Under the pieces are notes generated by a model. The model saw only the letters and a program-made list of their open reading frames with translations. It ran no database searches and was not told where the DNA came from. From contig JBIIGI010000005.1 of assembly GCA_044236545.1 (NCBI GenBank), forward strand, positions 1 to 62,724: a stretch of 62,724 nt of DNA, in the 5' to 3' direction. This stretch comes from Chthoniobacterales bacterium. GTDB lineage: Bacteria > Verrucomicrobiota > Verrucomicrobiia > Chthoniobacterales > UBA6821. The translations under genes and the position numbers were made by a program. Shown here piece after piece: positions 7,425-22,222 of this stretch (position 1 is the stretch's first letter; each line of letters opens with the position of its first letter).

Positions 7425-10400
7425 AAAAGATTTTCCAACATCCCGCGCGTGACGCGAAGCCGACCCTCTGGAGGACCAGCGGAGAGCTCGAGAATTCCGC
7501 GGAGTTCAACGAGTCGCTCGCACGCGAGTTCACCGATGCGGCCTCGGGCCGTGAATCAAGCGAGGGTCTCTCCCGTCGTGATTTCGTCCGCCTCATGGGA
7601 GCCGCCACCGCGCTGACCGGCGTGGGGCTGACCGGTTGCCGCCGTCCCGAGGCGCACCTCGTTCCCTTTGCCAAGAGCGCCGAGTGGACGGTTCCCGGGA
7701 AGTTCCTCTTCTACGCGAGCGCCATGCCGACACCGGCGGGCGCCGTTCCGCTCATCGTCACCACCAGCGATGGTCGCCCCACCAAGATCGAGGGGAATCC
7801 CCTCCACCCGCTCAGCAACGGCTCGACCGATGCCTTTGCCCAGGCCTCCGTCCTCGATCTCTACGACCCGAACCGTTCCAAGGAGATCAAGCACGACTCG
7901 CTGACCGTCGGTCGCGGCGATCTCGACAACCTGCTGGCCAAGATCCGCGCCACCGCGGGATCCAATGCCGGCGACGGCCTCGCGATCCTCGTAGGCAGGG
8001 AGAACTCCCCCACCGTCGAGCGTCTCCGGGCCGCACTGGTCCAGCAGTTCCCCAAGATCCTCTGGGTGCAGGACGAGGCGATTTCTTCTCGCGGCGCGGA
8101 GGAGGCCTTCGACGTCCTGTTCGGCGCGGGAGCCCGTCCCGCGTGCGATGTGGCCAGGGCTGATGTCATCCTCTCGATCGGCAGCGATTTCCTGAACCCC
8201 GCCGAGAGCGGCTTCGGTTTCGCCAACGGCTTTGCCAAGCGCCGCGATCCCAAGGGGTCGATGAATCGTCTCTACGTGGCGGAGAACCACTTCTCCCTCA
8301 CCGGCGGCATGGCCGACCACCGCCTCCGCGTCCGGGCCTCGGAATACGGCGACTTCGCCGCCGCGGTCGCCTCCGCTGTCGCCGCCAAGACCGGGGATGC
8401 CGGCCTCAATGCCCTTTCCTCGGCTTACAAGGGCACCGGTGTCACCTTTGATCCAGCCTGGATCAAGGGAGTGGCCGACGATCTCCTCTCCGCGAAGGGG
8501 AAGAGCCTTGTCCTTGTCGGCGCGCAGCAGCCTGCCGCGGTCCGAGCCCTCGTCATCGGGATCAATGCCGCCCTTGGCAATCTCGGCACGACCATTTCCG
8601 TTCGCCAGACTGGCGCCAAGCCCGCCGCGAAGCTTTCCGATCTCTGCGCCGCGATCAAGGCCGGCTCGGTCAAGACCCTCCTGATCCTCGGCGGCAATCC
8701 GGCTCACACCGCCCCCGCCGGCCTCGACTTCGCGAACCTTCTGGCACACGTCCCCGAGACGCTCCATCTCTCGCTCTTCACCGACGAGACGAGCAAGGTG
8801 ACCCACTGGCAGGTGCCCGCGGCCCATTATCTGGAGAGCTGGGGCGATGCCCGTTCCCTCGACGGCACGGTCTGCTCCGTCCAGCCGATGATCCTTCCGC
8901 TCTGGAACGGAATCTCCGCGATCGAGATCCTCGCGTCGCTGGCCGGCGAGAAGATCGACGGCCCCTCCGCAGTCCGCGCCACCTTCGCCTCCTACTCCAA
9001 GGATGCCTCCGACGCCGCCTGGCAGACCTTCCTGAAGAACGGCTTCGCCGCGGGAACCGCGTGGCCCCTCTCGGCACCGGCCTTCAACCAGGGTGCCGCC
9101 CTCGCTGCCGTCCAGTCGGCCAAGGGGAGTGCCTCCGGGGAGTTTGAGGTGGTCTTCCTCCGCAGTTCGAGCGTCGACGACGGCCGCTACGCTAACAATT
9201 CCTGGCTCCAGGAGACCCCCGATTTCGTTACCAAGCTCGTCTGGGACAATGCCGCCCTTGTCAGCCCCGCCGACGCCAAGGCTCTCGGCATCAAGGATGG
9301 CGACTGGCTCCGGATCACCGCCGGCGACCGATACATCGATGCCGCCGCCCTGATCGCTCCCGGCCATGCCGACCGCTCGGTCAGCATCGCCCTCGGCTAC
9401 GGCCGCAACGGCGTCTCCCACGTGATGGAGAAGGTCGGATTCGACGCCTACCCGCTCCGCGATTCCACCACGCTCGGATACCGTGCCGGTGTCGCCGTGA
9501 AGGCCCTGCCCAAGGATGCATACGTCTTTGCCCGCACGCAGGAGCACGAGAACATGGAGGGGCGCGACATCGCCCGCGAGGGGACGCTCGAGCAGTTCAG
9601 GGAGGAGCCGAACTTCGCCTCTGAGATGGATGGCGAACTCCCCAAGCCCGTTTCCATCTACCCGAATCCCCCGCTCACCGGCGATCTCCAGTGGGGTCTC
9701 TCGGTCGATCTGAATTCCTGCATCGGCTGCAATGCCTGCCTCGTCGCCTGCCGCGCCGAGAACAACGTCCCCGTCGTCGGCAAGGACCAGGTCCGCCGCG
9801 GCCGCGACATGGCCTGGATCCGCATCGACCGCTGGTTCGCGAGCGCCGATCACAGGGAGGAATCCCTCGAGATGATCCCGATGGCGGTGATGTGCCAGCA
9901 TTGCGAGAGCGCCCCGTGCGAGGCGGTCTGCCCGGCCAACGCCACCGTCCACAGCGAGGAGGGTCTCAACCTGATGGCCTACAACCGCTGCATCGGCACC
10001 CGCTACTGCGCCAACAACTGCCCCTGGAAGGTGCGCCGCTTCAACTGGTTCGACTACAACGAGCGCCCCCTCGACCAGCTCTACTACGGCCCGCTTGCGC
10101 CGAAGGGAATGGCCGACAGCCTCAAGATGGCCAAGAACCCGAACGTCACCGTCCGCATGCGCGGCGTGATGGAGAAGTGCACCTTCTGCATCCAGCGCAT
10201 CGAGGAGGCCAGGATCGGCCGCGCGGTGAAGGCCGGCGCCAGCGACGTCACCAAGACTCCGCTCCCCGCCTTCAAGTCCGCCTGCCAGCAGGCCTGCCCC
10301 TCCGAATCGATCGTCTTCGGCAACATCAACGACCCCGAGAGCCCGGTCTCCAAGGCCAAGGCCGACGCCCGCACCTACTCCTCGCTCGCCTACCTCAATA

Positions 10401-10516
10401 CGCGTCCGCGCGTCACCTACATGGCGAGGGTCCGCAATCCCAACCCGGCGATGCCCGGAGCCGATCTCGTCGGTGCCGCCAATCGTCGTAACGAGCACGC
10501 CACCCACTCCCACTAA
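7421..10516 (+). CDS. actB: Alternative Complex III subunit ActB (molybdopterin-oxidoreductase-like plus FeS domains)
   Basis: Start at ATG 7421 (ATGA overlap with the actA stop). Tat signal SRRDFVRLMGAATALTG. The C-terminal half carries ferredoxin-type Cys clusters CIGCNACLVAC, CQHCESAPCEAVCP, CIGTRYCANNCP and CTFCIQR. Confidence 0.9.
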   Translation: MKKIFQHPARDAKPTLWRTSGELENSAEFNESLAREFTDAASGRESSEGLSRRDFVRLMGAATALTGVGLTGCRRPEAHLVPFAKSAEWTVPGKFLFYASAMPTPAGAVPLIVTTSDGRPTKIEGNPLHPLSNGSTDAFAQASVLDLYDPNRSKEIKHDSLTVGRGDLDNLLAKIRATAGSNAGDGLAILVGRENSPTVERLRAALVQQFPKILWVQDEAISSRGAEEAFDVLFGAGARPACDVARADVILSIGSDFLNPAESGFGFANGFAKRRDPKGSMNRLYVAENHFSLTGGMADHRLRVRASEYGDFAAAVASAVAAKTGDAGLNALSSAYKGTGVTFDPAWIKGVADDLLSAKGKSLVLVGAQQPAAVRALVIGINAALGNLGTTISVRQTGAKPAAKLSDLCAAIKAGSVKTLLILGGNPAHTAPAGLDFANLLAHVPETLHLSLFTDETSKVTHWQVPAAHYLESWGDARSLDGTVCSVQPMILPLWNGISAIEILASLAGEKIDGPSAVRATFASYSKDASDAAWQTFLKNGFAAGTAWPLSAPAFNQGAALAAVQSAKGSASGEFEVVFLRSSSVDDGRYANNSWLQETPDFVTKLVWDNAALVSPADAKALGIKDGDWLRITAGDRYIDAAALIAPGHADRSVSIALGYGRNGVSHVMEKVGFDAYPLRDSTTLGYRAGVAVKALPKDAYVFARTQEHENMEGRDIAREGTLEQFREEPNFASEMDGELPKPVSIYPNPPLTGDLQWGLSVDLNSCIGCNACLVACRAENNVPVVGKDQVRRGRDMAWIRIDRWFASADHREESLEMIPMAVMCQHCESAPCEAVCPANATVHSEEGLNLMAYNRCIGTRYCANNCPWKVRRFNWFDYNERPLDQLYYGPLAPKGMADSLKMAKNPNVTVRMRGVMEKCTFCIQRIEEARIGRAVKAGASDVTKTPLPAFKSACQQACPSESIVFGNINDPESPVSKAKADARTYSSLAYLNTRPRVTYMARVRNPNPAMPGADLVGAANRRNEHATHSH

Positions 10517-10521: not shown

Positions 10522-11943
10522 ATGGACGCGACCACTTCCAACGAGACCGCCGCTCCCGACCTGAGCGCCATCGCCCGCCCGCCGCAGGTGCTCAACAACC
10601 GCGGCCCGCTCTGGGTGACCGACGCGGTCTGCTCGATCGTCGAGGGGAAGACCCCGCTCTGGTGGTATGCCGCCATCTCCGTCTCCGGCACCTTCGCCGC
10701 GATCGGCGGAGCCTGCATCCTCTACATGATCGTGACAGGCGTCGGCGTCTGGGGTTCCAACAGCCCCTGCTTCTGGGCCTGGGACATCACGAACTTCATC
10801 TTCTGGGTCTCCATGGCCCATGCCGGATCACTCATCTCCGCGCTCCTCTTCCTGACCCGCCAGAAGTGGAGCATCTCGATCTCCCGCGCCGCCGAGGCGA
10901 TGACCGTCTTTGCCATCGTCTGCGCCGGCGTCTATCCCGCGATCCATATCGGGCGCGTCTGGTTCGTCTGGTTCCTCTTCCCCGTGCCCAACAGCTACGG
11001 CATGTGGCCGAACTTCTCGAGCCCTCTGCTCTGGGACGTCTTCGCGGTGACCAGCTACCTGACCGTCTCCTCGCTCTTCTGGTTCGCCGGCATGATCCCC
11101 GATCTCGCCGTCCTCCGCGACCGCGCCACGACGAAGATCCGCAAGTTCGCCTACGGCCTTGTCTCCCTCGGTTGGCTTGGTACCGCCCGCCAGTGGCGTC
11201 ACTACGAGATGATGTATGTCCTGCTGGCGGGACTCACCTCGGTCCTCGTCGTCACCGTCACCACGATCGTGGCCAGCGACTGCGCCACGTCGGTCGTCCC
11301 CGGTTGGCACGCCACCATCTTCCCCTTCTACTTCATGGTCGGCGCCGTCTACAGCGGAAGCGCCACCATCCTGACCCTGCTCATCCCGCTCCGCGCGATC
11401 TATCCCCAGCTCAAGGAACTGATCACCCCGTCCCACCTCGACAAAGTCTGCAAGCTCCTCCTCATGATGGGCTCCTGCGTGGGCTACGTCTACGTCTTCG
11501 AGCTTTTCAATGCCTGGTACAGCGCGAACCCCTTCGAGCGCGGAGCCTTCTGGGAGCGCTTCACCGGCAGCTACAGCTGGTATGCGATCACCTGTCTCTC
11601 GATCAACCTGACGATCCCCCAGCTCTTCTGGTTCAAGGCGGTTCGCCGATGCCTGCCGCTTGTCGTCATCCTGGCGCTCCTCTGCAATGTCGGCATGTGG
11701 TTCGAGCGCTTCATGATCGTGACCACCACGCTCACCCACGATTTCCTACCCTCCTCCTGGGGGAATTTCCACGCGACGATCGTCGACATCCTGACCGCTA
11801 CGGGAACGGTCGGCATCTTCTTCACGCTCTTCCTGCTCTTCATCCGCTTCGTCCCGATCATCAACATGAGCGAGCTCAAGGCCGCGCTTCCGGAATCCCA
11901 GCCCCATGGAGATTCAGGGCACTCAACCGGGGAGGGACGCTGA
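10522..11943 (+). CDS. actC: Alternative Complex III subunit ActC (NrfD/PsrC-like quinol-interacting membrane subunit)
   Basis: 473-aa polytopic membrane ORF immediately after actB. NrfD-like composition and position. Confidence 0.88.
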   Translation: MDATTSNETAAPDLSAIARPPQVLNNRGPLWVTDAVCSIVEGKTPLWWYAAISVSGTFAAIGGACILYMIVTGVGVWGSNSPCFWAWDITNFIFWVSMAHAGSLISALLFLTRQKWSISISRAAEAMTVFAIVCAGVYPAIHIGRVWFVWFLFPVPNSYGMWPNFSSPLLWDVFAVTSYLTVSSLFWFAGMIPDLAVLRDRATTKIRKFAYGLVSLGWLGTARQWRHYEMMYVLLAGLTSVLVVTVTTIVASDCATSVVPGWHATIFPFYFMVGAVYSGSATILTLLIPLRAIYPQLKELITPSHLDKVCKLLLMMGSCVGYVYVFELFNAWYSANPFERGAFWERFTGSYSWYAITCLSINLTIPQLFWFKAVRRCLPLVVILALLCNVGMWFERFMIVTTTLTHDFLPSSWGNFHATIVDILTATGTVGIFFTLFLLFIRFVPIINMSELKAALPESQPHGDSGHSTGEGR

Positions 11944-11945: not shown

Positions 11946-12530
11946 ATGAGCCATCACCTTCCCATCTGCGGATCCAAGGACGAGCCGCTCCACGCGATCG
12001 GAGCACGGTTCGACACCCCCGACCAGCTTGTGGCCGCGGTGAACCGCCTGCGTGCCGAGGGCTACTCCGCCTACGAATGCTTCACACCTTATCCGGTTCA
12101 CGGACTCGCCGAGGCGATGCGCCTGCCCAAGTCCCTCCTCAGCTTCCTCGTGCTGGGCGGCGGTCTCACGGCCATCCTGATCGCCTTCTCGATGGAGCTT
12201 ATCCCGAGCACCCTGATCTACCCGCTCGTCGTGGACGGCAAGCCCCTCAATCTCCTTGCCCTGCCCCAGTATGTGCCGATCGTCGTGGCACTCACGCTGA
12301 TGATCGGCGCCATCGCCGCGGTGAAGGGAATGATCATCCTCGGTGGCATGCCCCGCCTGAACAACCCGATGTTCGCCTGGGACCTCTTCGCCAAGGATGC
12401 CTCGCGAGGCTTCTTCCTCGCGATCGAGGCCGATGACAAAAAATTCACCACGACCGGAGTGACCGAGCTTCTCGATCAACTCGGAGCCGGCGATGTCACC
12501 GCCATCCATCTCGAGGAGGAATCCAAGTAA
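11946..12530 (+). CDS. actD: Alternative Complex III subunit ActD (DUF3341-like)
   Basis: In-frame ATG at 11946 (MSHHLPICGSKDEPLHAIGARFDTPDQLVAAVNRLRAEGYSAYECFTPYPVHGL...). Two C-terminal TM helices. Position after actC. Confidence 0.82.
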   Translation: MSHHLPICGSKDEPLHAIGARFDTPDQLVAAVNRLRAEGYSAYECFTPYPVHGLAEAMRLPKSLLSFLVLGGGLTAILIAFSMELIPSTLIYPLVVDGKPLNLLALPQYVPIVVALTLMIGAIAAVKGMIILGGMPRLNNPMFAWDLFAKDASRGFFLAIEADDKKFTTTGVTELLDQLGAGDVTAIHLEEESK

Positions 12531-12534: not shown

Positions 12535-13281
12535 ATGAGCCTCATCCGCTACTTCATCCTTCTCCTGACCCTGCTGGTCATCCTGGTGGTCTCCATCGCG
12601 GGACTGCGCGGCTGCAAGACCAAGCGCCCGCCGATCGAGATCTTCCCCGACATGGTACGCCAGCCCAAGGTGAAGGCCCAGGTTCCGAGCGGATTCTTCG
12701 CCGACGGACGCGGCTCCCGCGAGCCGGTCGCCGGGACGGTTCCCGTTGGCTACAGCGAGCCTGTAAAGCCGTCCGCCGCATCATCGGCATCCACTGCGTC
12801 GAATGGATCAAATGGCGCCGTCATGAGCGGCCCCTACGAGGTCGTCATTTTCTCCGGCAAGGAAGGCTACGCCGACACCGGAAAGAACGGCACCAACTGG
12901 GGCAACGGACTTCCCTTCAACGCCACCATGGCGACCCTCGAGCGCGGCCGTGAGCGTTACCAGATCCAGTGCGCCGTCTGCCACGGGGAGACCGGGGCCG
13001 GCAACGGCATCGCCACGAAGTACGGTCTTGTCGGCGTCGCAAGCCTCCACCAGCAGCGCCTCCGCGAGATGACCGACGGCGAGATCTACAACACGATCGC
13101 CAATGGGAAGAACACGATGCTCGGATACGGATCGGTGATCCAGGTGCCCGATCGCTGGGCAATCGTCGCCTACATCCGCGCCCTGCAGCGCTCGCAGAAC
13201 GCGACGATCAACGACGTCCCCGCAGCCGAGCGTGCGGCCCTGCAGGGAACCAACTCCGCCTCCACCCCTGCCAAGCCCTGA
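12535..13281 (+). CDS. actE: Alternative Complex III subunit ActE (membrane-anchored monohaem cytochrome c)
   Basis: Internal ATG 12535 (MSLIRYFILLLTLLVILVVSIAG, TM anchor). Single CAVCHG haem motif. Confidence 0.85.
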   Translation: MSLIRYFILLLTLLVILVVSIAGLRGCKTKRPPIEIFPDMVRQPKVKAQVPSGFFADGRGSREPVAGTVPVGYSEPVKPSAASSASTASNGSNGAVMSGPYEVVIFSGKEGYADTGKNGTNWGNGLPFNATMATLERGRERYQIQCAVCHGETGAGNGIATKYGLVGVASLHQQRLREMTDGEIYNTIANGKNTMLGYGSVIQVPDRWAIVAYIRALQRSQNATINDVPAAERAALQGTNSASTPAKP

Positions 13282-13284: not shown

Positions 13285-14481
13285 ATGAGCAACGAGCAGA
13301 CATCACTACCGGCCCCGGAGACCTTTGACTACAAGCATGTCGGGGGCCGCTTCGTCGGCCTCTGCCTGACGGCGGTCGTCACCCTCGTCATCTCCCTGGT
13401 GCTCGGCTTGGGTGACCCGAAGCAGTTCGCCTTCTCCTGGCTCTTCGCCGGAAGCTTTTTCTTCACCCTCCTGATCGGCTCCCTCTTCTGGGTCGTGGTC
13501 CATCACGCTGTCGACAGCGCCTGGAGCGTCGGGATCCGCCGCCAACTCGAGAACATCTCCTGCCTGCTGCCGCTGCTGGCCCTGCTGCTTGTGCCGCTCT
13601 TTTTCGTGGCGCCTCTCGTCTGGACCTGGATGGCATCGGATCCCGCCCACGACCATGAGCTGGCCGAGAAATCCGCCTACCTGAACGTCAACTTCTTCTG
13701 GCTGCGCACGGCCTTCTACTTCCTGCTCTTCGGCATCGTGGCCGCGCTCCTGCGCCGCAACTCGATCGCGCAGGACAAGGACGGGGCCGCCATCCACACG
13801 ATCCGCAACCGCCGCGTGGCCTTCTTCATCATCCCCGTCGGTGCCATCGCGCTGACCTTCTGGTCGTTTGACTGGATCATGGGCCTGAACATCCGCTGGT
13901 ATTCCACGATCTTCGGTATCTACCTCTTTGCCGGATCCGCCCTCGCGGCGCTCTGCCTCATCATCCTTCTTGCCAACGCGCTACGCTCCGCCGGTTACCT
14001 CGGGCGGGTCCTGACCGCCCAGCACAACTTCGCCTTCGGCAAGCTGCTGCTCGCCTTCACGCTCTTCTGGTCCTGGATCGCCTACGTCCAGTACATGCTC
14101 ATCTGGTATGCGAACATCCCCGAGGAGACCGCCTACTATGTCCTCCGCTCGACGGGCTCCTGGAAGGTGCTCGGCATCGTCCTTGTGGTCGGCCACTTCC
14201 TCATCCCCTTCACGCTTCTCATCTTCCGTGCGCCGAAGGCGAGCGCCGGCTTCCTCGGGTTGGTTGCGGGGTGGATCCTGGTAATGCACCTGCTCGACCT
14301 CTACACCATGATCCTTCCCGTGCTCCACCCGGAGGGATTCCACCCCGCCGTCCTGGACATCGCGGCAGTCATCGCCATCGGCAGCACCCTGGGAGCCGTC
14401 TTCCTCAAGAAACTGGGCGATTCCCCGCTCTGGCCCTCCCGTGACCCGCGCCTCGCCGAGGCCGCCAATTACAACGACTGA
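13285..14481 (+). CDS. actF: Alternative Complex III subunit ActF (polytopic membrane subunit)
   Basis: 398-aa highly hydrophobic ORF in the canonical actF position. Confidence 0.8.
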   Translation: MSNEQTSLPAPETFDYKHVGGRFVGLCLTAVVTLVISLVLGLGDPKQFAFSWLFAGSFFFTLLIGSLFWVVVHHAVDSAWSVGIRRQLENISCLLPLLALLLVPLFFVAPLVWTWMASDPAHDHELAEKSAYLNVNFFWLRTAFYFLLFGIVAALLRRNSIAQDKDGAAIHTIRNRRVAFFIIPVGAIALTFWSFDWIMGLNIRWYSTIFGIYLFAGSALAALCLIILLANALRSAGYLGRVLTAQHNFAFGKLLLAFTLFWSWIAYVQYMLIWYANIPEETAYYVLRSTGSWKVLGIVLVVGHFLIPFTLLIFRAPKASAGFLGLVAGWILVMHLLDLYTMILPVLHPEGFHPAVLDIAAVIAIGSTLGAVFLKKLGDSPLWPSRDPRLAEAANYND

Positions 14482-14813
14482 TGACACACCATCACGAGAC
14501 ATCCCATGAGAGCGCGACCGCATCGCGCGGTCCCGGCATCCTGCTCGGCGTGGCCGTGCTGATCCTGCTCCTGATCGCCGCCGCCGGCGCCCTCTGGATC
14601 AACCGCTCCGGTTCCGCCACCGAACTCGAGGATGCGACGCGCGCCGCCGAGCGGACGAAGAACCTCGCGGAACTTCAGGCGGCCGACAAGGCGGCCCTCA
14701 CCACCTACGGATGGAACGACAAGGCCAAGGGTGTTGTCCGCATTCCGATCACTCGCGCGATGGAACTGGTCCTCCCGACGCTGAAAACCGCCGCCAAGCC
14801 TTCCCAGCAATGA
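14481..14813 (+). CDS. small single-TM protein (possible ACIII/oxidase accessory subunit)
   Basis: 110 aa with one TM (ILLGVAVLILLLIAAAGALWI). TGATG junction with actF and ATGA junction with the next gene imply co-translation with the cluster. Confidence 0.55.
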   Translation: MTHHHETSHESATASRGPGILLGVAVLILLLIAAAGALWINRSGSATELEDATRAAERTKNLAELQAADKAALTTYGWNDKAKGVVRIPITRAMELVLPTLKTAAKPSQQ

Positions 14814-16240
14814 TCGAGAACATCTTTCCCCATCATCACGCCGAAGAGGATCGCGGAACCGCCGCGACGCGCGCCGTCGACGCCTCCGTGCGCCTCCCGG
14901 TGCTGGTTCTTTTCGGCAATGCCGTCCATTGGCTGGTCGTCGCCTCGCTGATCTCCTTCATCCTCTCGGTGAAGTTGATCGCCCCCGGATTCCTCGGCGG
15001 CGTCAGTTTCCTCACCTACGGCCGTCTCGCGCCGATGGCGCGGGATCTCTTCCTCTACGGATGGGCTTCCCAGGCCGCGCTTGCCGCCGGCATCTGGCTG
15101 ATGGCCCGCCTCAGCGGACGGCCTCTCGGGGGGATTCTGCATTCCACGCTCTTGGTCAGCGCCACGGTCCTCTGGAACGTCGCCATCCTGCTCGGCACGC
15201 TTGCGATCTTCGCCGGTTACAGCACCGGGGTGGAATGGCTCGAGTACCCGAACTGGGCCTCGGCGATGCTGCTCCTCTCCTTCCTGCTCATCGGCATCTG
15301 GGCGGTGCTCCAGTTCGACCGCCGCACCAACGAGCGCGCCGAGGTCGCCCAGTGGTTCCTTGTCGCTGCCTTCTGCTGGTTCCCCTGGGTCTACGGCACA
15401 GCGAACCTTCTGCTCACCTGGAAGCCCGTTCAGGCCTCCGCGCAGGGACCGATCCAGTCGTGGTATTGCGGAAGCCTGCTTGCTCTCTGGCTTCTGCCGG
15501 TGGCCATCGCCGCCCTCTACGCCTTGATGCCCCGCCTGCTCGGTTGCCATCTGAACCGCCGCAATCTGGCGACCCTCGGATTCTGGATGCTGCTCCTGCT
15601 CGGGGGATGGAACGGCATGGAGCGACTCATCGGCGGCCCTGTTCCCGCCTGGATTACCTCGGCCGGCGTCGTGGCAGGAGTCCTCTTCCTGATCCCGGTG
15701 GTGATCGTCGCGATCAATCTCCTCGGCATGAGCGCTGATAAGAAAACCGATGTGGAGGAGGGTGTGGTGATTCGTTTTCTGAAGAGCGGGATCTACGCGA
15801 TGCTTTCGGTCGGAATCCTGGGAGCCCTCTGCGCGCTGCCGGAGATCAGCGGTGCTCTCCGCTTCACTGCCGTCACCGAGGCCAAGACCCAGCTCTGGAT
15901 TCTCGGGGCGATTTCCTTCCCGCTCTTCGCGGTGCTCTACGAGTCGTGCCCCGCCCTGCTGGGTCGCGACTGCTGGTGCTCCTCCCTCTCCGCCCGCCAC
16001 TACTGGTTCACCTTCTCGGGGCTCTGGCTGCTGGTCGGACTGATGCTCTTCGGAGGTCTCTTCACCGGACTCGCGCTGAACGACCCGACCGTCTCCTTCC
16101 TCAACATCACCTCCTACTCCTATCCCTTCCATGTCCTGGAGTGCGCGGCACAGCTCCTGCTTCTTGCCGCCGCGGTGATCCTCGGACTCAATCTCTCACG
16201 CGCCCTTGCGTGGGATTACCTCTTCCCGAAGAAGAAATAA
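14810..16240 (+). CDS. cbb3 oxidase subunit I (CcoN)-like membrane protein lacking all canonical haem/CuB histidine ligands
   Basis: Start at ATG 14810. Collinear similarity to CcoN (YGRLAPMARDLFLYGWA, YSTGVEWLEYPNW, SWYCGSLLA, GFWMLLLLGGWNGMERL). The ligand His positions are replaced; see findings. Confidence 0.8.
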   Translation: MIENIFPHHHAEEDRGTAATRAVDASVRLPVLVLFGNAVHWLVVASLISFILSVKLIAPGFLGGVSFLTYGRLAPMARDLFLYGWASQAALAAGIWLMARLSGRPLGGILHSTLLVSATVLWNVAILLGTLAIFAGYSTGVEWLEYPNWASAMLLLSFLLIGIWAVLQFDRRTNERAEVAQWFLVAAFCWFPWVYGTANLLLTWKPVQASAQGPIQSWYCGSLLALWLLPVAIAALYALMPRLLGCHLNRRNLATLGFWMLLLLGGWNGMERLIGGPVPAWITSAGVVAGVLFLIPVVIVAINLLGMSADKKTDVEEGVVIRFLKSGIYAMLSVGILGALCALPEISGALRFTAVTEAKTQLWILGAISFPLFAVLYESCPALLGRDCWCSSLSARHYWFTFSGLWLLVGLMLFGGLFTGLALNDPTVSFLNITSYSYPFHVLECAAQLLLLAAAVILGLNLSRALAWDYLFPKKK

Positions 16241-16241
16241 C

Positions 16242-16886
16242 ATGCACCGCCTACCGACACTGCTCAGCGGTATCTTCCTGGTCTTCCTGACCTCCTGGCT
16301 CGGGTTGGTCGCCTATCCCGTGCTCGGATTGGGCCGTCTGGCCCCGGTGGCCGATGCCGATACCGGCGGCACCCTTCCTCCCGTCTACGGCGGTCAGGCG
16401 GTGGCGGGACAACGCGTCTACGCGACCGAGGGGTGCATCTCCTGCCACAGCCAGCAGGTCCGCCAGACAAGCATCACGCAGACCGACATCGAGCGCGGTT
16501 GGGGCGTGCGTCCCTCGGTGGCTCGCGACTATCTGCGCGACAGCACCTCCTTCCTCGGTTCCCGCCGGCTCGGCCAGGATCTCTCGAATGTCGGCGTGCG
16601 TCTTCCCGACGCCGCCTGGCACTACAAGCATCTCTACCATCCCTCCTCCGTCTGCGAGGGGTCGCTGATGCCCTCCTACAGCCACCTCTTCAGCCTCCGC
16701 AAGATCCAGGGACAGCGCTCCGACGAGGCGCTCAACCTGACCGGTGTGGATGCCCCGAAGCAGGGTTACGAAGTGGTTCCGACGGCGGAGGCGAAGAACC
16801 TCGTCGCCTATCTCCTCTCCCTGCGTCATGATTATCCCCTGCCCGAGGCTCCCGTGAAGAAAGCGGCTGCCGGGCCGGCCAAGTAA
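16242..16886 (+). CDS. cbb3 oxidase subunit II (CcoO/FixO)-like monohaem cytochrome c
   Basis: ATG 16242. N-terminal TM. EGCISCHSQQVR haem motif. GSRRLGQDLSNVG..WHYKHLYHPSSVCEGSLMPSY matches the CcoO signature, including the axial Met region. Confidence 0.85.
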   Translation: MHRLPTLLSGIFLVFLTSWLGLVAYPVLGLGRLAPVADADTGGTLPPVYGGQAVAGQRVYATEGCISCHSQQVRQTSITQTDIERGWGVRPSVARDYLRDSTSFLGSRRLGQDLSNVGVRLPDAAWHYKHLYHPSSVCEGSLMPSYSHLFSLRKIQGQRSDEALNLTGVDAPKQGYEVVPTAEAKNLVAYLLSLRHDYPLPEAPVKKAAAGPAK

Positions 16887-16907
16887 AACGATCCAGAACG
16901 ATCAGCC

Positions 16908-17549
16908 GTGAATCACGATCAACACAATCACAAGCAGGAGTGCGGTGGAGGGGAATCCTCCGCGAACTCCGGCGCGCCCCTCTCCCCCTGGCTCGTCGGG
17001 GCCTTCATTGTCGCAATCTTCTGGGGTGGCTTCTACCTCGCCTTCAACAGCGGCGGGTTCCGCCAGGATGTCTACGAGTCCAACGCGGTGAGTTGGGCCG
17101 GCGGCGGCACGCAGGCCGCCGCGCCCGTCGATCCCAAGGTCGTCGGCAAGCGCCTCTACAGCCAGAACTGCGTCGTCTGCCACCAGGCCAACGGACAGGG
17201 TGTGGCCGGTCAGTTTCCTCCCCTTGCCGGAAGCGAATGGGTCAACGGCGGCGACAAGCAGGGTGAGAACCATCTCGTCCTGCTGATGCTCCACGGCCAT
17301 CAGGGGCCGATGCAGGTCATGGGTGCCAACTACAACAATGCCATGCCGCAGTGGAAGCAGCTCAGCGACGACCAGATCGCCTCGATCCTCACCTACATCC
17401 GCTCGGATTGGGGGAACAAGGCCTCCGCCGTCGACCCGGCTTTCGTCGCGAGCCTCCGCAAGGAGCACGCGGCCCAGAGCGAGGCCTGGACCCAGGCCCA
17501 GTTGCTGGCCATCCCTCCCGTCAAAGGCACCCAGGCCCCCGCCAAATAA
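16908..17549 (+). CDS. membrane-anchored class I cytochrome c
   Basis: GTG start, 213 aa. TM WLVGAFIVAIFWGGFYLAF. CVVCHQANGQG haem motif and a distal MPQW Met region. Confidence 0.8.
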   Translation: MNHDQHNHKQECGGGESSANSGAPLSPWLVGAFIVAIFWGGFYLAFNSGGFRQDVYESNAVSWAGGGTQAAAPVDPKVVGKRLYSQNCVVCHQANGQGVAGQFPPLAGSEWVNGGDKQGENHLVLLMLHGHQGPMQVMGANYNNAMPQWKQLSDDQIASILTYIRSDWGNKASAVDPAFVASLRKEHAAQSEAWTQAQLLAIPPVKGTQAPAK

Positions 17550-17558: not shown

Positions 17559-18494
17559 ATGAGAGAGTTTTCCTTCCGCCGCCCGTTCACCCGGATCCTC
17601 TCCGGGGCGTTCCTGCTGCTGCCGGTGCTGGCGGCCTCCTCGCTCATGGCGGAGCAGCGCTCCGGCAATGTCTACCTCCTTCCTCCCTGCGTCACGACAG
17701 TCGGCGAGCAGATCGACGACCTGATCAAGATCATCTTCTGGCTCTGCGCCGCGATCTTCGTGCTGACCCAGGTCACCTACGTCTACTACCTCATCAAGTA
17801 CCGCCGCCGTCCCGGAGTTCCCGCCCACTACAGCCACGGGAACAACACGCTGGAGATCATCTGGACCACCGCCCCGACCCTCGTCTTCCTGGCGCTCGCG
17901 ATCTACGGCAACCGCATCTGGGAGAATATCCACCGTCCCGCGCCCGAGAACTCGCTCGTCATCGATGTCTCCAGCTACCAGTTCGGCTGGGACATGCGCT
18001 ATCCCGGCATCAGCGGGAAACTCGCCCCCATGGATGTCCGCAAGATCGGCCCCGAGAACCGCTTCGGAACTGATCCGGAAAACCCGCTCACCGCGCAGGA
18101 TGTGGTGGCGCCCGAACTGGTCATTCCGGTCGGCAGGCCCGTCCATCTCCTGCTCCACGCCCGCGACGTGATCCACTCCTTCTACGTTCCCGAGTTCCGC
18201 CTCTATCAGGACTGCGTTCCGGGCCGCACGATCGGCTGGGTCTGGTTCCAGGCCACCCGCACGGGCGAGTTCCAGCTGGCCTGCAACCAACTCTGTGGAA
18301 CCGGTCACTACAACATGAAGGCGCCGATCCGTGTGGTCACCGAAGAGGAGTTCCAGAAATGGCTGACCCCCCGTCAGCAGAAGAACGCCGGCCCGGCACA
18401 GCCTGCTCCTTCAGCGCCTTCAGCCCCCCAGGCCGCTTCCACGGCTCCAAAGGCCGCCACCTTGACCGCATCTCCCGCAAAGAATACCCTCTAA
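17559..18494 (+). CDS. coxB: cytochrome c oxidase subunit II (CuA; no fused cytochrome c domain)
   Basis: 311 aa. CuA ligands HSFYVPEF ... CNQLCGTGHYNM. No CxxCH anywhere in the product. Confidence 0.9.
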   Translation: MREFSFRRPFTRILSGAFLLLPVLAASSLMAEQRSGNVYLLPPCVTTVGEQIDDLIKIIFWLCAAIFVLTQVTYVYYLIKYRRRPGVPAHYSHGNNTLEIIWTTAPTLVFLALAIYGNRIWENIHRPAPENSLVIDVSSYQFGWDMRYPGISGKLAPMDVRKIGPENRFGTDPENPLTAQDVVAPELVIPVGRPVHLLLHARDVIHSFYVPEFRLYQDCVPGRTIGWVWFQATRTGEFQLACNQLCGTGHYNMKAPIRVVTEEEFQKWLTPRQQKNAGPAQPAPSAPSAPQAASTAPKAATLTASPAKNTL

Positions 18495-18498: not shown

Positions 18499-20274
18499 AT
18501 GAGCGCTTCCGTCACCGCCGACAGTCACGCAGCCCACGCCCACCATGGCGATGACCATGGCCACGGCAAGCCCGGGATCATGCACTGGATCTGGAACACC
18601 GACCACAAGGTGATCGCGATGCAGTTCCTCGTCTCGGCTGTCTTTTTCCTGCTCATCGGCGGGGCCATGGCCGTGGCGATGCGCTGGCAGTTGGGTTTCC
18701 CGGGTCATCCGATCCCCGTTCTCGGACATCTTCTTCCCTCCGGCATCGTCAATGACGAGGGAGCGATCATGCCCAGCGGCTACAACGTGCTCGTGACCAT
18801 GCACGGGACGATCCTCGTCTTCTTTGTCGCGATGCCTCTCCTCATCGGCGTCTTCGGCAACTTCCTCATCCCGCTCAAGATCGGCGCCGGTGACATGGCA
18901 TTTCCCGCCCTCAACGAGTTGAGCTACTGGCTCTTCGCGCTCTCCGGCGTGATCATGATGGCCTCCTTCTGGGTGCCGGGCGGCGCTCCCGGCACGGGTT
19001 GGACCGGCTATGCCCCTCTCAGTAGTGTGGCCGCCTACAACCAGACCCCGATGGGACAGACGCTCTGGTGCGTGGCTCTCTTCATCAACGGACTCTCCTC
19101 GCTGACCGGAGCCGTCAACTACATCACCACCGTGATCACGATGCGCGCCCCCGGGATGACGATGTTCCGGATGCCGCTTCCTGTCTGGGCGATCTTCCTG
19201 ACAGCGATCCTGCTCATCCTCGCGATCCCCGTCCTCTCTGCTGCGGCCGCACTCATCATCTTCGACCTGAATCTCGGAACCAGCTTCTACAGGCCCCAGG
19301 GTGGCGGGCAGCCGCTGCTCTGGCAGCATCTCTTCTGGTTCTTCGGCCACCCCGAGGTCTACATCCTGATCCTCCCGGCGATGGGTCTGACCTCCGAGAT
19401 CCTCTCGGTGAACTCCCGCAAGCCGGTCTTCGGCTACAAGGCGATGGTCTGGGCGATGATCGCGATCGGCGTCCTCGGCTTCATCGTCTGGGGACACCAC
19501 ATGTATGTCAGCGGCATGAACCTGACCCTCAGCGCCGCCTTCTCCGTCTCGACGATGGTCATCGCGGTGCCGAGCGCCATCAAGACCTTCAACTGGATGG
19601 GCACCATCTGGCGCGGATCGATCCACTACACCGTCCCGATGGCCTTTGCGGTCGCCTTCGTCTCGATGTTCGTGATCGGCGGCCTCTCCGGCATCTTCAT
19701 GGCCTCCACGCCGGTCGACCTCTTCGTACACCACACCTACTTCATTGTCGCCCACTTCCACTACGTCCTCTTCGGCGGATCGATGTTCGCGATCTTCTCG
19801 GCGGTCTACTTCTGGTTCCCCAAGATGACGGGCAGGATGTTCGACAACACCCTCGGTTGGATCCACTTCTGGATGACCTTTGTCTTCTTCAACCTCACCT
19901 TCTTCCCGATGCACAACCTCGGCCTCGGCGGCATGATGCGCCGCATCGCCGACCCGACCGTCTACGACTGCCTGCGCCAGCTTCAGCCGCTCAACGTGGT
20001 CTGCACGATCGGCGCGATCGGACTCGGATTGGCAACGATCCCCTTTGTGGTGAATCTCGTCATGAGCCTCCGCAAGGCTCCCGACGCGCCGGCCAATCCC
20101 TGGAACTCGACCACCCTCGAGTGGACGCTCTCCCATCCGATCCAGCATGGGAACTTCCCAGTCACGCCGACCGTCTACCACGGCCCCTACGAGTACAGCG
20201 TGCCCGGTCTTCAGAAGGACTTCCTCCCGCAGAACGAGAAGGCTCCCGCCCACGTCACGCTGGAGGCCCACTGA
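18499..20274 (+). CDS. coxA: cytochrome c oxidase subunit I (haem-copper oxidase, A-type)
   Basis: 591 aa. WFFGHPEVYILILP, GFIVWGHHMY and HHTYFIVAHFHYVLFGG are classic subunit I ligand motifs. Confidence 0.95.
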   Translation: MSASVTADSHAAHAHHGDDHGHGKPGIMHWIWNTDHKVIAMQFLVSAVFFLLIGGAMAVAMRWQLGFPGHPIPVLGHLLPSGIVNDEGAIMPSGYNVLVTMHGTILVFFVAMPLLIGVFGNFLIPLKIGAGDMAFPALNELSYWLFALSGVIMMASFWVPGGAPGTGWTGYAPLSSVAAYNQTPMGQTLWCVALFINGLSSLTGAVNYITTVITMRAPGMTMFRMPLPVWAIFLTAILLILAIPVLSAAAALIIFDLNLGTSFYRPQGGGQPLLWQHLFWFFGHPEVYILILPAMGLTSEILSVNSRKPVFGYKAMVWAMIAIGVLGFIVWGHHMYVSGMNLTLSAAFSVSTMVIAVPSAIKTFNWMGTIWRGSIHYTVPMAFAVAFVSMFVIGGLSGIFMASTPVDLFVHHTYFIVAHFHYVLFGGSMFAIFSAVYFWFPKMTGRMFDNTLGWIHFWMTFVFFNLTFFPMHNLGLGGMMRRIADPTVYDCLRQLQPLNVVCTIGAIGLGLATIPFVVNLVMSLRKAPDAPANPWNSTTLEWTLSHPIQHGNFPVTPTVYHGPYEYSVPGLQKDFLPQNEKAPAHVTLEAH

Positions 20275-20282
20275 GTCCCGCC

Positions 20283-21326
20283 ATGGGCCCGGGCACCGTG
20301 GAAGCCACGAACTCCGGCGCCGGGAACCCGCGCCTGACGGGATCCCGGGCGGTTCACCGCATCGCGCTATTCGGCGCACTGAGCACCTTCCTGCTCATCG
20401 TCGTGGGGGGACTCGTCACCTCAAAGGGAGTCGGCATGTCGGTGCCCGACTGGCCGACCACCTACGGCTACAACATGTTCCTCTATCCCTACTCGAAGTG
20501 GGTGGGGGGCATCTTCTGGGAACACTCCCACCGTCTCATCGCCTCGGGCGTGGGGTTGATCGCCCTCATCCTTGCCGCCGTCGCTCTCTGGAAAGAAGGA
20601 CGCACCTGGGTCAAGTGGCTCACGATCGCCGCCGTGATCCTGGTATGCCTGCAGGGGCTCCTGGGTGGGCTGCGAGTGACACTCTACAAGGATCAGATCG
20701 GGATCTTCCACGCGCTGCTGGCCCAGAGCTTCTTCGGTCTGCTGCTGATCATCACCGCCGTCACCGGCCGTGGCTTCCTGGCCGGAAAGTGGACGCGTGA
20801 TCCGGCGTCCGGATCACTCCGGTGGCTCTGCGTGGCGGCCCTGCTGCTCACCTACTTCCAGTTGGGTGTCGCCGCGACCATCCGTCATCAGCACGCACCG
20901 CTTGCGATCCGTGACTTTCCCGCCGCCTACGGCACGCTGATCCCTGCTACCGATTCCGCCTCCTTGGCGACGATCAATGCACAGCGTGCCGCCGACCGGA
21001 TCGCTCCCGTCAGCGCAGGGCAGATCCACCTCCAGCTTATCCACCGCGCCGGGGCCGTTGTCCTCTTTATCGTCGTCCTGATTTTCTCGGCCAAGGCCCT
21101 GCAGGTGACGCCGCTCGGTCACTGGCTTCGCGGATGGAGTCTCCTCTGGGTCGGCGCGATCCTGCTCCAGATCCTGCTGGGCGGAATGACCATCTGGTTC
21201 AACAAGGCGGCCGATGTCGCCACGACACACATGGCGCTCGGTGCACTGCTCACGGGATTTGTCATCCTGCTCACCTTCCGGCTTTTCTGCTCCGCGGAGG
21301 GGCACACCCGCCCCGTCACGGCATGA
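20283..21326 (+). CDS. ctaA: haem A synthase (COX15/CtaA family)
   Basis: In-frame ATG 20283 inside ORF 19068..21326. VGGLVTSKGVGMSVPDWPTTYGYNMF, EHSHRLIASG and HRAGAV motifs. Polytopic membrane protein. Confidence 0.85.
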   Translation: MGPGTVEATNSGAGNPRLTGSRAVHRIALFGALSTFLLIVVGGLVTSKGVGMSVPDWPTTYGYNMFLYPYSKWVGGIFWEHSHRLIASGVGLIALILAAVALWKEGRTWVKWLTIAAVILVCLQGLLGGLRVTLYKDQIGIFHALLAQSFFGLLLIITAVTGRGFLAGKWTRDPASGSLRWLCVAALLLTYFQLGVAATIRHQHAPLAIRDFPAAYGTLIPATDSASLATINAQRAADRIAPVSAGQIHLQLIHRAGAVVLFIVVLIFSAKALQVTPLGHWLRGWSLLWVGAILLQILLGGMTIWFNKAADVATTHMALGALLTGFVILLTFRLFCSAEGHTRPVTA

Positions 21327-22222
21327 GTGCTGATTCCACCACCCCCGCCACCAACGAGGCCAAGCAGGCCACGATCCTTTCCGATCTCGGGGAGCTCTCC
21401 AAGGCGCGCCTCTCCCTGCTGGTCCTGCTGACAACTCTGGTCGGCTTCCTGCTCGGATGGCACGGCCCGATGGATTACATCCTCCTGGGCGCCACGCTGA
21501 TCGGGACGGCCCTCAGCGCCGCCGGTGCCTCCGCGCTCAATCAGTGGCTCGAGCGCGACCTCGATGCCCTGATGCCGCGCACCCTCGACCGGCCGCTTCC
21601 CGCGCGCAGGATGCATCCCTCCGATGCCTTGCTCTTCGGCCTGCTCTGCTCAGGCAGCGGGGTGGCCCTGCTGGCCCTGATGGTCAATCCGATCACGGCG
21701 TTCCTCTCCTTCCTGACCATTCTAATATACGCCGCCCTCTACACGCCGCTCAAGCGCGTGAGCGAGCTCAATACGCTGCTCGGGGCGGTGCCGGGAGCCC
21801 TGCCTCCGCTCCTCGGATGGACTGCCGCCACGGGCCACACGGGACTCGGCGGATGGTTGCTTTTCCTGATCCTCTGGTTCTGGCAGATGCCCCATTTTCT
21901 TGCGATCGCCTGGCTCTATCGCGACCAGTATGCCGCCGCGGGATTCCGGATGCTCAGCACGCGCGATCCCGAGGGTTGGGCCACTTCCTGGCAGTCGCTC
22001 ATCTATGCCGCCGCCCTGCTTGCGGTCTCCCTCCTTCCGGGACTCTTCGGGTATGCCTCCCCGTGGTATTTCTTCGCGGCCCTGGCCCTGGGGGCGGCGA
22101 TGCTCTTCCTGGCGGGGGATTTCGTGAGAACACGGACGGCCGCATCGGCGCGGAGGTTGTTTTTCGCCTCGATCATCTACCTCCCGCTCCTCCTCGGAGC
22201 CCTCGTCGCCTTCCGACTCTAA
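21323..22222 (+). CDS. ctaB: protohaem IX farnesyltransferase (haem O synthase)
   Basis: ATG 21323 (ATGA overlap with ctaA). NQWLERDLDALMPRTLDRPLP and YTPLKRVS are UbiA-type prenyltransferase motifs. Confidence 0.9.
   Translation: MSADSTTPATNEAKQATILSDLGELSKARLSLLVLLTTLVGFLLGWHGPMDYILLGATLIGTALSAAGASALNQWLERDLDALMPRTLDRPLPARRMHPSDALLFGLLCSGSGVALLALMVNPITAFLSFLTILIYAALYTPLKRVSELNTLLGAVPGALPPLLGWTAATGHTGLGGWLLFLILWFWQMPHFLAIAWLYRDQYAAAGFRMLSTRDPEGWATSWQSLIYAAALLAVSLLPGLFGYASPWYFFAALALGAAMLFLAGDFVRTRTAASARRLFFASIIYLPLLLGALVAFRL

Follow-up and report, generated by a model that had tools for sequence, protein, structure and literature searches.

Organization of the act-cco-cox operon

The window analysed, i.e. 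the whole 62,724-nt stretch of a Chthoniobacterales contig (Accession No. JBIIGI010000005.1), contains an operon with the gene order actABCDEF, a small gene for a protein with one transmembrane helix (1-TM), ccoN* (a ligand-less ccoN), ccoO, a cytochrome c gene, coxBA, ctaAB, coxC, and sco (Table 1). The junctions from actF to coxA range from -4 to +21 nt, indicating a single co-translated unit; the ATG of ccoN* overlaps the stop codon of the upstream gene (ATGA), and the FixO-family gene ccoO starts 1 nt past the ccoN* stop codon.

Table 1. Predicted genes of the operon carrying ccoN* (positions in the window).
Gene product	Position	Strand	Basis
ActA, pentahaem cytochrome c subunit of Alternative Complex III (ACIII)	6765..7424	+	five CxxCH; Cytochrome_C7, E 7e-16
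ActB, Fe-S/molybdopterin-like ACIII subunit	7379..10516	+	4Fe-4S dicluster and Molydop_binding domains
ActC, NrfD-like quinol-binding membrane subunit	10522..11943	+	Pfam NrfD, E 4.4e-13
ActD	11946..12530	+	Pfam PF11821 (ActD), E 4.9e-43
ActE, monohaem cytochrome c subunit	12535..13281	+	Cytochrome_CBB3, E 2.7e-13; one CxxCH
ActF, second polytopic ACIII membrane subunit	13285..14481	+	position and conserved synteny only
Small 1-TM protein, 110 aa, His-rich N-terminus	14481..14813	+	translation, conserved position
CcoN*, ligand-less CcoN, 12-TM haem-copper oxidase subunit I fold	14810..16240	+	profile match, alignments, AF2 model, dN/dS
CcoO-like monohaem cytochrome c, N-terminal TM anchor, haem site CISCH and MPSY intact	16242..16886	+	Pfam FixO, PDB CcoO matches
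Membrane-anchored monohaem cytochrome c, Thermus c552 type, 1-TM, CVVCH	16908..17549	+	Pfam, PDB matches
CoxB, aa3 oxidase subunit II with CuA site	17559..18494	+	TIGR02866, 153 bits, above cut-off
CoxA, A-family oxidase subunit I, ligand motifs intact	18499..20274	+	Pfam COX1, E 1.7e-150; GHPEVY and HH
CtaA	20271..21137	+	Pfam COX15-CtaA
CtaB	21134..22222	+	Pfam UbiA
CoxC	22388..23041	+	Pfam COX3
SCO1/SenC	23055..23699	+	Pfam SCO1-SenC

ActA matches multihaem families of Pfam; the ORF at 6497-7354 is an out-of-frame artefact. The ActE ORF opens at 12493, with the likely start at 12535. Orthologues of ActB are found at the same position in related loci (42-97% identity), and ActF, which has no match in Pfam, is conserved in its place in every related operon (34-97% identity). 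With ActF assigned in this way, the ACIII cluster (ActABCDEF) appears to be complete. The small 1-TM gene lies between actF and ccoN in operons with liganded and ligand-less CcoN alike, and the sole similarity of its product was to ActG (8k9e_G), at an insignificant E-value of 1.6. Downstream, CoxB matches only COX2_TM and COX2 in Pfam and lacks a fused cytochrome c domain, as noted in the first-pass annotation, and its CuA motif (CNQLCGTGHYNM) is intact. CoxA scored just below the cut-off of TIGR02891 (639 vs. 671 bits). CtaA, CtaB, CoxC, and SCO1/SenC make up an oxidase biogenesis and accessory block at 20271..23699 on the + strand. Judging from the CoxA ligand motifs, the CuA site of CoxB, and CoxC, a whole A-family (aa3) oxidase is encoded in the operon.

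The CcoO-like protein matches Pfam FixO (PF02433; E 4.3e-22, 79 bits vs. a cut-off of 29.6) and the CcoO chains in PDB (E 2e-15), and is regarded as a divergent member because it reached only 77 vs. 200 on TIGR00781. An immediately downstream ccoO-like partner with haem c is shared with cbb3 oxidase but, unlike in cbb3 oxidase, dihaem CcoP is absent and a c552-like monohaem cytochrome takes its place: the best PDB matches of this third gene product are cytochrome c552 (E 3e-21, vs. 2e-7 for CcoP), to the Thermus type of which it is far closer than to CcoP.

Fold and metal-ligand positions of CcoN*

The 476-aa CcoN* matched Pfam COX1 (PF00115) over residues 32-445 (E 2.2e-30, above the gathering score), and phmmer aligned residues 38-465 collinearly with the solved CcoN chains 6xkw_n, 9g6b_A, and 3mk7_A. 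Its AlphaFold2 model (pLDDT 88, pTM 0.90) contains 12 TM helices, and Foldseek matched the model to Pseudomonas stutzeri CcoN (3mk7_A) with TM-scores of 0.89/0.91 and an rmsd of 2.3 Å. The collinearity with CcoN proposed in the first-pass annotation is thus borne out; the protein is homologous to C-family cbb3 CcoN over its whole length, and its 12-TM fold is predicted to be intact. It scored 80.4 bits on TIGR00780 (ccoN), unlike cbb3 CcoN falling below the NCBIfam equivalog cut-off of 583.15. Automatic annotation at present labels ccoN* genes 'cbb3-type cytochrome c oxidase subunit I'.

Six histidines define haem-copper oxidase subunit I. Of these ligands, two for haem b, one for haem b3, and three for CuB, CcoN* retains none: A77, G221, E271, R272, K359, and Q361 occupy the positions of H60, H207, H257, H258, H345, and H347 of P. 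stutzeri, and the cross-linked Tyr of helix 7 (Y251) is replaced by G265. These readings were obtained from phmmer alignments and from an independent MAFFT alignment with 120 homologues; both agree, and the complete ligand loss claimed initially holds. The equivalents of E323 and Y317 of cbb3 CcoN are also replaced, as are those of T215, S240, H243, and Y251, which, together with Y317, we take to be proton-channel residues (reportedly those of Buschmann et al. 2010). At least four of the seven catalytic positions are missing in 107 of the 120 best homologues, indicating that the loss is neither chance nor a one-off. With these substitutions, CcoN* would be unable to reduce O2 by the known mechanism, and the actual protein would be free of haem b, haem b3, and CuB.

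CcoN* might still bind haem or metal via non-canonical ligands and have a redox or catalytic role, e.g. in electron transfer only. K359, Q361, E271, and R272 are fairly conserved in the query clade, and intermediates with just the two low-spin haem b His (pattern HNSQ[RH]YH) were found in P0109, P0113, P0117, and P0118. Across the independent ligand-less clades, however, the residues that fill the seven positions are unrelated, many of them being Ala, Gly, Leu, or Val. Nor have the ligands shifted: in the alignment, ligand-less relatives have no conserved substitute set of His, Met, or Cys, and their sole invariant His, H397, which lies close to where TM11 ends on the cytoplasmic side, is just as invariant in liganded CcoN. 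Moreover, among loci from the best 80 of 336 matches, the maturation gene ccoS/FixS (PF03597) is found just upstream of ccoN in 25 of 32 liganded but 0 of 37 ligand-less loci; unlike in cbb3 systems, no FixS-like ORF precedes ccoN* of the query, and ccoS is absent from the window. Non-canonical binding is therefore considered very improbable.

Ligand-less ccoN in related Chthoniobacterales

The comparison covered 79 related loci obtained from the best 80 of 336 matches, a sample biased towards the query; the sequences are MAG-derived, and the trees were constructed by neighbour-joining. Among these relatives, the same operon is widespread with a CcoN that has all its ligands (HHYHHHH), suggesting that the ancestor had a working cbb3. 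Since the act-cco-cox layout also occurs with functional CcoN, the layout is ancestral and did not evolve as an adaptation to an inactive subunit. The gene had at first been described as a CcoN paralogue; its homology to CcoN stands, but instead of a stray paralogue it is the positional orthologue of the functional, ACIII-linked ccoN of sister operons.

On the ActC plus ActF tree, the ligand-less state requires at least five changes in 100 of 100 bootstraps, and ligand-less loci are monophyletic in 0 of 100. These data indicate that the ligands were probably lost on at least about five independent occasions. A similar pattern could result from replacement of genes between operons, but pairwise identities argue against it: every ligand-less clade is as near to liganded CcoN as to the other ligand-less clades. 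Loss of ccoS appears to have accompanied each ligand loss. The ligand-less locus L069 and the liganded locus L028 share 92% identity in ActC, 81% in ActF, 65% in CcoO, and 46% in CcoN, whereas the liganded control pair L028 and L022 share 92% in ActC and 82% in CcoN.

ACIII lies upstream in all 33 ligand-less loci with enough flanking sequence (from the best 80 of 336 matches). In contrast, coxBA follows in 29 of 34, coxB only in two, and neither gene in three; L080 also lacks adjoining coxBA. Four stand-alone ccoNO loci were found, three fully liganded and one (L021, HHSHHHH) missing only the cross-link Tyr. The invariant companion of ligand-less ccoN thus appears to be ACIII, not aa3. Of the location between ACIII and an aa3 oxidase given in the first-pass annotation, the ACIII side is general and the aa3 side is not, and a role as an adaptor from ACIII to aa3 cannot be universal given the loci without coxBA or with coxB only.

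Selection on the ligand-less genes bears on whether ccoN* is a non-functional relic, i.e. a young pseudogene that is as yet undisrupted. Ligand-less CcoN does evolve about 2x faster relative to ActC/ActF than liganded CcoN, and five independent ligand-less clades have dN/dS values of 0.11-0.22 vs. 0.03-0.08 for liganded orthologues. For the query ccoN* compared with its nearest relatives, dN/dS is 0.11-0.17. However, these values and those of the query clade (0.05-0.17) remain low, and full-length orthologues of ~470-490 aa persist down to about 35% identity, with intact ORFs across lineages diverged to ~35-45%, so that no pseudogene decay is seen. The gene is also translationally coupled on both sides, and the same outcome was reached at least five times without gene loss. 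A relic is strongly disfavoured by these data and considered extremely improbable. After each ligand loss, the protein seems to have diverged rapidly for a time before purifying selection set in. The ccoN* gene is under strong purifying selection and appears to be neither a pseudogene nor an oxidase. With catalytic residues lost, the predicted fold kept, and purifying selection acting, CcoN* has the features of a pseudo-enzyme.

The pattern of conservation also differs between the two forms. In ligand-less proteins, the conservation that remains increases across the membrane towards the periplasm (Spearman +0.20, p 1e-5), whereas in liganded CcoN conservation decreases in this direction (Spearman -0.13, p 0.005). 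Among positions invariant in liganded CcoN, 56% of the periplasmic, 46% of the cytoplasmic, and 43% of the middle ones are kept in ligand-less proteins; the periplasmic bias is thus modest. Cytochromes dock on the periplasmic face. The shell might have taken on a new task that needs no cofactor, e.g. conducting protons or ions for ACIII or binding a lipid or quinone. In the query clade, the cavity that once held the active site would contain polar or charged residues (E271, R272, and K359), and proton translocation by ACIII is unresolved in the literature (PMC8498564). We consider such an activity improbable: the cytoplasmic half, where protons would be taken up, is the least conserved part, the equivalents of the presumed channel residues are replaced, and the cavity residues vary between ligand-less clades.

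Possible role of CcoN* in an ACIII-centred assembly

The evidence above suggests that ccoN* is most likely kept as a structural part of an ACIII respiratory assembly, not as an enzyme. More specifically, we regard it as moderately probable that the gene encodes a dead, cofactor-free cbb3 subunit I that serves as a structural anchor for CcoO in an ACIII-centred assembly. In the ancestor, a functional cbb3 subunit I gene would have stood directly after the ACIII genes and before the aa3 oxidase. Loss of the sites for haem b, haem b3, and CuB and of the residues for proton uptake would have followed, while the 12-helix protein stayed on as a structural subunit in the membrane. What is left for it to do would be to fold, anchor, and position the haem-c subunit CcoO on the periplasmic face, and possibly to anchor the c552-like cytochrome as well. 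The CcoN*-CcoO pair would sit within the assembly, in physical association with ACIII or aa3. Electrons would pass from quinol through ACIII (Fe-S clusters, ActA, and ActE) to c-type haems, i.e. CcoO and/or the anchored c552-like cytochrome, and from there to CuA of CoxB and aa3. In such a scheme, an electron-wire role of CcoN*/CcoO would be plausible. The first-pass hypothesis of a CcoN shell that holds c-type haems between ACIII and aa3 is thus supported in part. More tentatively, a catalytic oxidase subunit may have been turned, repeatedly and independently within one order, into a cofactor-free tether of c-type cytochromes in a string from ACIII to aa3.

Whether the CcoO haem carries electrons separates this proposal from one in which CcoN* is purely an assembly or stability subunit that only stabilises ACIII or keeps CcoO folded. 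The CcoO haem would then be a structural need or a dead-end redox centre, and electrons would pass from ActA/ActE via the c552-like cytochrome directly to aa3. Since haem is required for the folding of c-type cytochrome domains, a CxxCH motif retained in CcoO is no proof of electron carriage. CcoO also diverges somewhat faster in loci with a dead CcoN (65% vs. 74% identity at equal ActC divergence), coxBA is missing from some ligand-less loci, and the c552-type cytochrome immediately before coxB resembles known CuA donors. The ACIII of F. johnsoniae passes electrons to aa3 with no additional carriers, and not even ActE is needed (PMC8552683). On the other hand, the intact haem site seen initially in the query CcoO (CISCH and MPSY) is widely retained, the CxxCH and Met-Pro motifs, including the axial Met, being kept in 39 of 43 ligand-less loci from several independent lineages (from the best 80 of 336 matches), and dN/dS of CcoO is still 0.04-0.13. 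The haem site of the membrane-anchored CVVCH cytochrome, likewise recognized at first reading, is kept in 40 of 40 ligand-less loci from the same matches. A purely assembly-related role is considered rather unlikely, and the CcoO haem may lie on the electron path.

Supercomplexes of ACIII with aa3 and caa3 oxidases are known (PMC8552683, PMC5928083), and ACIII genes adjoin cbb3 genes in Verrucomicrobia (PMC8498564). As in the query operon, act genes are directly followed by terminal-oxidase genes for the ACIII-aa3 of F. johnsoniae and the ACIII-caa3 of R. marinus, and in these systems, as proposed here, the oxidase has ACIII as its dedicated supplier of electrons. The act-cco linkage of verrucomicrobial methanotrophs and Opitutaceae provides the same C-family neighbour (PMC8498564, PMC8552683). 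Unlike in known ACIII-oxidase systems, ACIII is followed in the query operon by a C-family module as well as an A-family oxidase, and the C-family catalytic subunit is predicted to be dead.

Pseudo-enzyme respiratory subunits include the inactive MPP-like core proteins of mammalian bc1 and the gamma-carbonic-anhydrase-like subunits of plant complex I, and ActF is a duplicate of ActC without the quinone site. In all three, as apparently in CcoN*, a dead enzyme fold is kept by selection as architecture. Unlike them, CcoN* would have degenerated from what was the very catalytic core of a terminal oxidase, repeatedly and so recently that a single bacterial order still contains functional orthologues beside dead ones.

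We found no published description of a ligand-less CcoN system in the literature, in agreement with the first-pass annotation. If the interpretation is true, CcoN* would represent the first case of a 'pseudo-oxidase' among haem-copper oxidases, and the natural series from functional through haem-b-only to empty proteins would illustrate how respiratory supercomplexes capture and repurpose dead enzymes. With the current annotation as cbb3 subunit I, metabolic reconstructions would wrongly assign a high-affinity oxidase to many freshwater and soil Chthoniobacterales. The family also bears on electron hand-over from ACIII to the oxidase, an open question in the literature (PMC8552683). Functional and dead orthologues in otherwise identical operons, with the dead form having arisen several times, would constitute a rare natural experiment in which the non-catalytic contribution of a respiratory-complex subunit becomes testable.

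Organization of the operon and its partner cytochromes

The window is a chromosomal segment with a GC content of approximately 62%; at 95% protein identity, it is closest to MAGs of Chthoniobacterales/'Spartobacteria' within the Verrucomicrobiota. A single string of genes on the + strand, located at approximately 6.8 to 23.7 kb, extends from actA through sco1 in the order actA, actB, actC, actD, actE, actF, a gene for a 110-aa protein with one transmembrane helix (1-TM), ccoN, a ccoO-like gene, a cytochrome c gene, coxB, coxA, ctaA, ctaB, coxC, and sco1. The junctions between genes from actF to coxA are -1, -4, +1, +21, +9, and +4 nt, and these short distances (-4 to +21 nt) point to a single translationally coupled unit. 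No other oxidase genes were found within the window.

Features of the operon encoding Alternative Complex III (ACIII), the ligand-less CcoN, and its partners
Feature	Position	Strand	Characteristics
actA	6765-7424	+	five CxxCH
actC		+	NrfD-like
actD		+	PF11821, E 5e-43
actE		+	monohaem
small 1-TM gene, 110 aa	14481-14813	+	between actF and ccoN
ccoN, ligand-less	14810-16240	+	Pfam COX1
ccoO-like gene	16242-16886	+	FixO family, CISCH and MPSY
anchored monohaem cytochrome c	16908-17549	+	1-TM, CVVCH, c552-like

Long spurious ORFs in the wrong frame or on the opposite strand are typical of GC-rich DNA, and two such ORFs lie opposite real genes in the window (7556-10513 and 14705-16132, both on the - strand). 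The ORFs at 6497-7354, 11906-12436, and 20147-20800 were rejected as ActA, ActD, and a cox gene, respectively, being out-of-frame artefacts of GC-rich DNA; the first two could be mistaken for actA and actD. A chemotaxis cluster (38170-50209; CheA-CheW, three MCP genes, CheB, and a response-regulator/PP2C (SpoIIE) protein) and a type III polyketide-synthase-like gene (27729-28748, - strand) represent ordinary chromosomal content unconnected with the ccoN finding.

The first-pass annotation had described a CcoO-like protein retaining CISCH and MPSY, a membrane-anchored CVVCH cytochrome downstream, and a CoxB without a fused cytochrome c domain, and all three features were recovered: the motifs are present in the FixO-family product, the cytochrome has a single transmembrane helix, and CoxB has CuA but no cytochrome domain. 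The best solved relatives of the 1-TM cytochrome are Thermus c552 proteins (E 3e-21), which match 14 orders of magnitude better than CcoP (E 2e-7), and its assignment as CcoP was therefore rejected. The 110-aa product yielded no significant match in Pfam or NCBIfam, and its only, non-significant PDB match was ActG of the Roseiflexus ACIII (E 1.6). Its gene, which belongs to no family, is conserved between actF and ccoN in liganded and ligand-less operons alike, and the protein may be an additional subunit of ACIII or of the cbb3 oxidase. His-rich N-terminal tails occur on four membrane proteins of the operon, i.e. MTHHHETSHE (14481-14520), FPHHHAEED (14825-14845), NHDQHNHKQE (16908-16940), and HAHHGDDHGHG (18535-18590, in CoxA); these tails, which possibly bind metal, lack conservation in the family at large.

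Fold and ligand positions of the CcoN homologue

The 476-aa product had been regarded as collinear with CcoN, and this was borne out by its match to Pfam COX1 (E 2.2e-30), by phmmer alignment of residues 38-465 with solved CcoN chains, and by structure prediction. AlphaFold2, run with 32 family members, gave a model (pLDDT 88, pTM 0.90) with 12 long helices, which Foldseek superposed on 3mk7_A, a cbb3 CcoN, with TM scores of 0.89/0.91, an rmsd of 2.3 A, and 18% identity, ranking above NOR and the A- and B-family oxidases. In NCBIfam, CcoN is also the nearest family, yet the score is 80 bits against an equivalog cut-off of 583. Although the fold is like that of CcoN, all six His and the Tyr at the ligand positions are lost, as originally proposed: both in the phmmer alignments and when 120 homologues were aligned with MAFFT, the Pseudomonas stutzeri residues H60, H207, Y251, H257, H258, H345, and H347 correspond to A77, G221, G265, E271, R272, K359, and Q361, respectively. 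The equivalents of E323 and Y317 (position counted from H345), which reportedly matter for catalysis, are L and M.

Shifted or substitute ligands were sought in the ligand-less relatives, but none was conserved. H397 is their sole invariant His and is also invariant in liganded CcoN, so the ligands are not present at a shifted position. CcoS is reportedly needed for cofactor insertion. A FixS/CcoS gene (60-75 aa; PF03597, above the gathering score) is located just 5' of ccoN in 25 of 32 liganded loci; upstream of ccoN it was found in none of the 37 ligand-less loci, nor in the window. This distribution of ccoS, one of the ccoGHIS assembly genes of cbb3 oxidases (PMC5829832), would corroborate a real loss of cofactors, and the alternative that the protein holds a cryptic cofactor is disfavoured by the missing ccoS and by the lack of conserved replacement His residues. 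Full-text literature searches yielded no description of a ligand-less CcoN, and these proteins are named 'cbb3-type cytochrome c oxidase subunit I' in the databases.

Related loci and repeated loss of ligands

When one genome per GTDB species was scanned, 336 relatives were identified, all MAG-derived, and the best 80 hits were taken as the locus sample (79 loci compared, designated by L numbers). The 79 loci are all from Verrucomicrobiota, almost all from Chthoniobacterales or Terrimicrobiaceae, and the window's proteins mapped to the same operon throughout. Approximately half encode a CcoN with the full pattern HHYHHHH (residues at the seven P. stutzeri positions in the above order), which argues that an act-ccoNO-cyt c-coxBA operon with a working cbb3 oxidase is ancestral and the window a derived state. 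This layout agrees with published reports that, in verrucomicrobial methanotrophs and Opitutaceae, genes for ACIII and cbb3 lie next to each other (PMC8498564, PMC6688271).

The expected co-occurrence of ligand-less CcoN with act genes held in every ligand-less locus whose flank extends 3 kb or more (33 of 33), with ACIII upstream, whereas that with coxBA was only partial: coxB and coxA follow in 29 of 34 loci, coxB alone in two, and neither in three; L080 likewise lacks both. ACIII therefore accompanies the ligand-less copies without exception, and aa3 in most cases. Of the four ccoNO-cyt c loci that stand alone, three are fully liganded (L046, L061, and L066) and one lacks only the cross-link Tyr (L021). 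No claim is made for a link between ligand loss and the oxic-lake habitat, since both forms are present in lake MAGs; loci L001-L018 were obtained from lakes.

Several loci show other arrangements. In L022 (12982-13836), L069 (12786-13631), L026, L028, L035, and L072, which include liganded and ligand-less operons, the string closes with a coxB-like gene with an intact CuA motif (CSQLCGTGHYNM) and no coxA within 7-8 kb downstream, an 'orphan' CuA subunit on an ACIII-cco module. Directly 3' of the ligand-less operon of L069 (15837-19179), genes for a bacteriorhodopsin-like protein (PF01036, E 4e-46), a polyprenyl synthetase, and a phytoene-desaturase-like oxidoreductase suggest a rhodopsin-plus-carotenoid cassette. 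In assembly CAZRIL01 (L027 and L035), act-ccoNO-cyt c-coxB operons occur at two separate places, with the patterns HHYHHHH and HRYHHHH, the result of a true duplication or of a mixed bin.

All trees were constructed by neighbour joining. In the CcoN-only tree, the ligand-less forms are placed together on long branches; this was rejected as evidence for a single origin of ligand loss, because their monophyly was recovered in 0 of 100 bootstraps with ActC+ActF and they show no special pairwise affinity (45-53% identity to liganded CcoN, 42-50% to other ligand-less clades). In the ActC+ActF tree, they occupy at least five separate positions beside liganded sisters (Fitch changes: minimum 5, median 7 over 100 bootstraps), with L069+L072+L028 grouped in 88 and L055+L065 in all 100 of 100 bootstraps. 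Clades also differ in the residues that they carry at the seven positions, e.g. AGGERKQ, ASATxxx, ASGAQLQ, and AGGRLEV. Ligand-less L069 and liganded L028 share 92% identity in ActC, 81% in ActF, and 65% in CcoO, but only 46% in CcoN, whereas the liganded control L028 versus L022 shows 92% in ActC, 74% in CcoO, and 82% in CcoN, indicating a burst of divergence.

Intermediate patterns were also found. The HNSQ[RH]YH group (L080 7505-8989, i.e. P0118; P0109, P0113, and P0117), located behind ACIII, retains only the two low-spin haem b His and has lost the CuB and haem b3 ligands; accompanied by a longer CcoO (301 aa) and a cytochrome c without coxB, it possibly represents an electron-transfer intermediate with haem b only. 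Near-intact forms, i.e. HRYHHHH in L026 and L035 (first CuB His to Arg; no recognisable ccoS upstream), HHSHHHH in L021 (cross-link Tyr to Ser), and HHCSHHH in L057 (cross-link Tyr to Cys), may represent early degeneration or altered chemistry. L057 derives from a MAG labelled Chthoniobacter flavus, as does L050, whose pattern is ASAAQHA.

Selection and the probable role of the ligand-less protein

Against its 95% relatives, the window's ccoN has a dN/dS (Nei-Gojobori) of 0.11-0.17, and within its clade the range is 0.05-0.12, resembling the values of actB and ccoO; dN/dS is 0.11-0.22 in five separate ligand-less clades and 0.03-0.08 in liganded orthologues. Relative to ActC/ActF of the same operons, ligand-less CcoN has accumulated approximately 2.1-fold and liganded CcoN approximately 1.2-fold more substitutions. 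The gene is relaxed yet clearly still constrained, and the possibility of a decaying pseudogene is disfavoured by the overall range of 0.05-0.22.

Conservation of the ligand-less protein rises from 0.43 in cytoplasmic loops to 0.68 in periplasmic loops, whereas the trend is reversed in liganded CcoN (0.87 to 0.81). From the cytoplasmic to the periplasmic side, the Spearman correlation is +0.20 (p 1e-5) in ligand-less and -0.13 (p 0.005) in liganded proteins, and rho for the ratio of the two is 0.29 (p 4e-10); this periplasmic bias is genuine, albeit of moderate size. Most of the conserved residues are Trp, Pro, and Gly common to liganded CcoN, a pattern that would be expected where selection acts on fold and surface and not on chemistry. 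Recruitment for a new transport function is disfavoured. The best-supported reading of these comparisons is a pseudo-enzyme, i.e. a cofactor-free CcoN shell, which would have been kept as a membrane platform still required by an ACIII-centred assembly, or at least by CcoO.

The partners retain their haem sites: CxxCH and Met-Pro are kept by CcoO in 39 of 43 ligand-less or partial loci, and the haem site of the c552-like cytochrome in 40 of 40. In the electron-wire idea of the first-pass annotation, electrons would pass from ACIII through CcoO and/or c552 to CuA, which agrees with these retained sites, with a c552-type donor encoded directly before coxB, and with known ACIII-oxidase supercomplexes (PMC8552683, PMC5928083). 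A purely structural role of the CcoO haem is also possible. The window shares the layout of the known ACIII-oxidase gene linkage but differs in that its C-family oxidase member is dead, and comparison of the loci provides unusually rich evidence that this protein has been under selection for a non-catalytic role.
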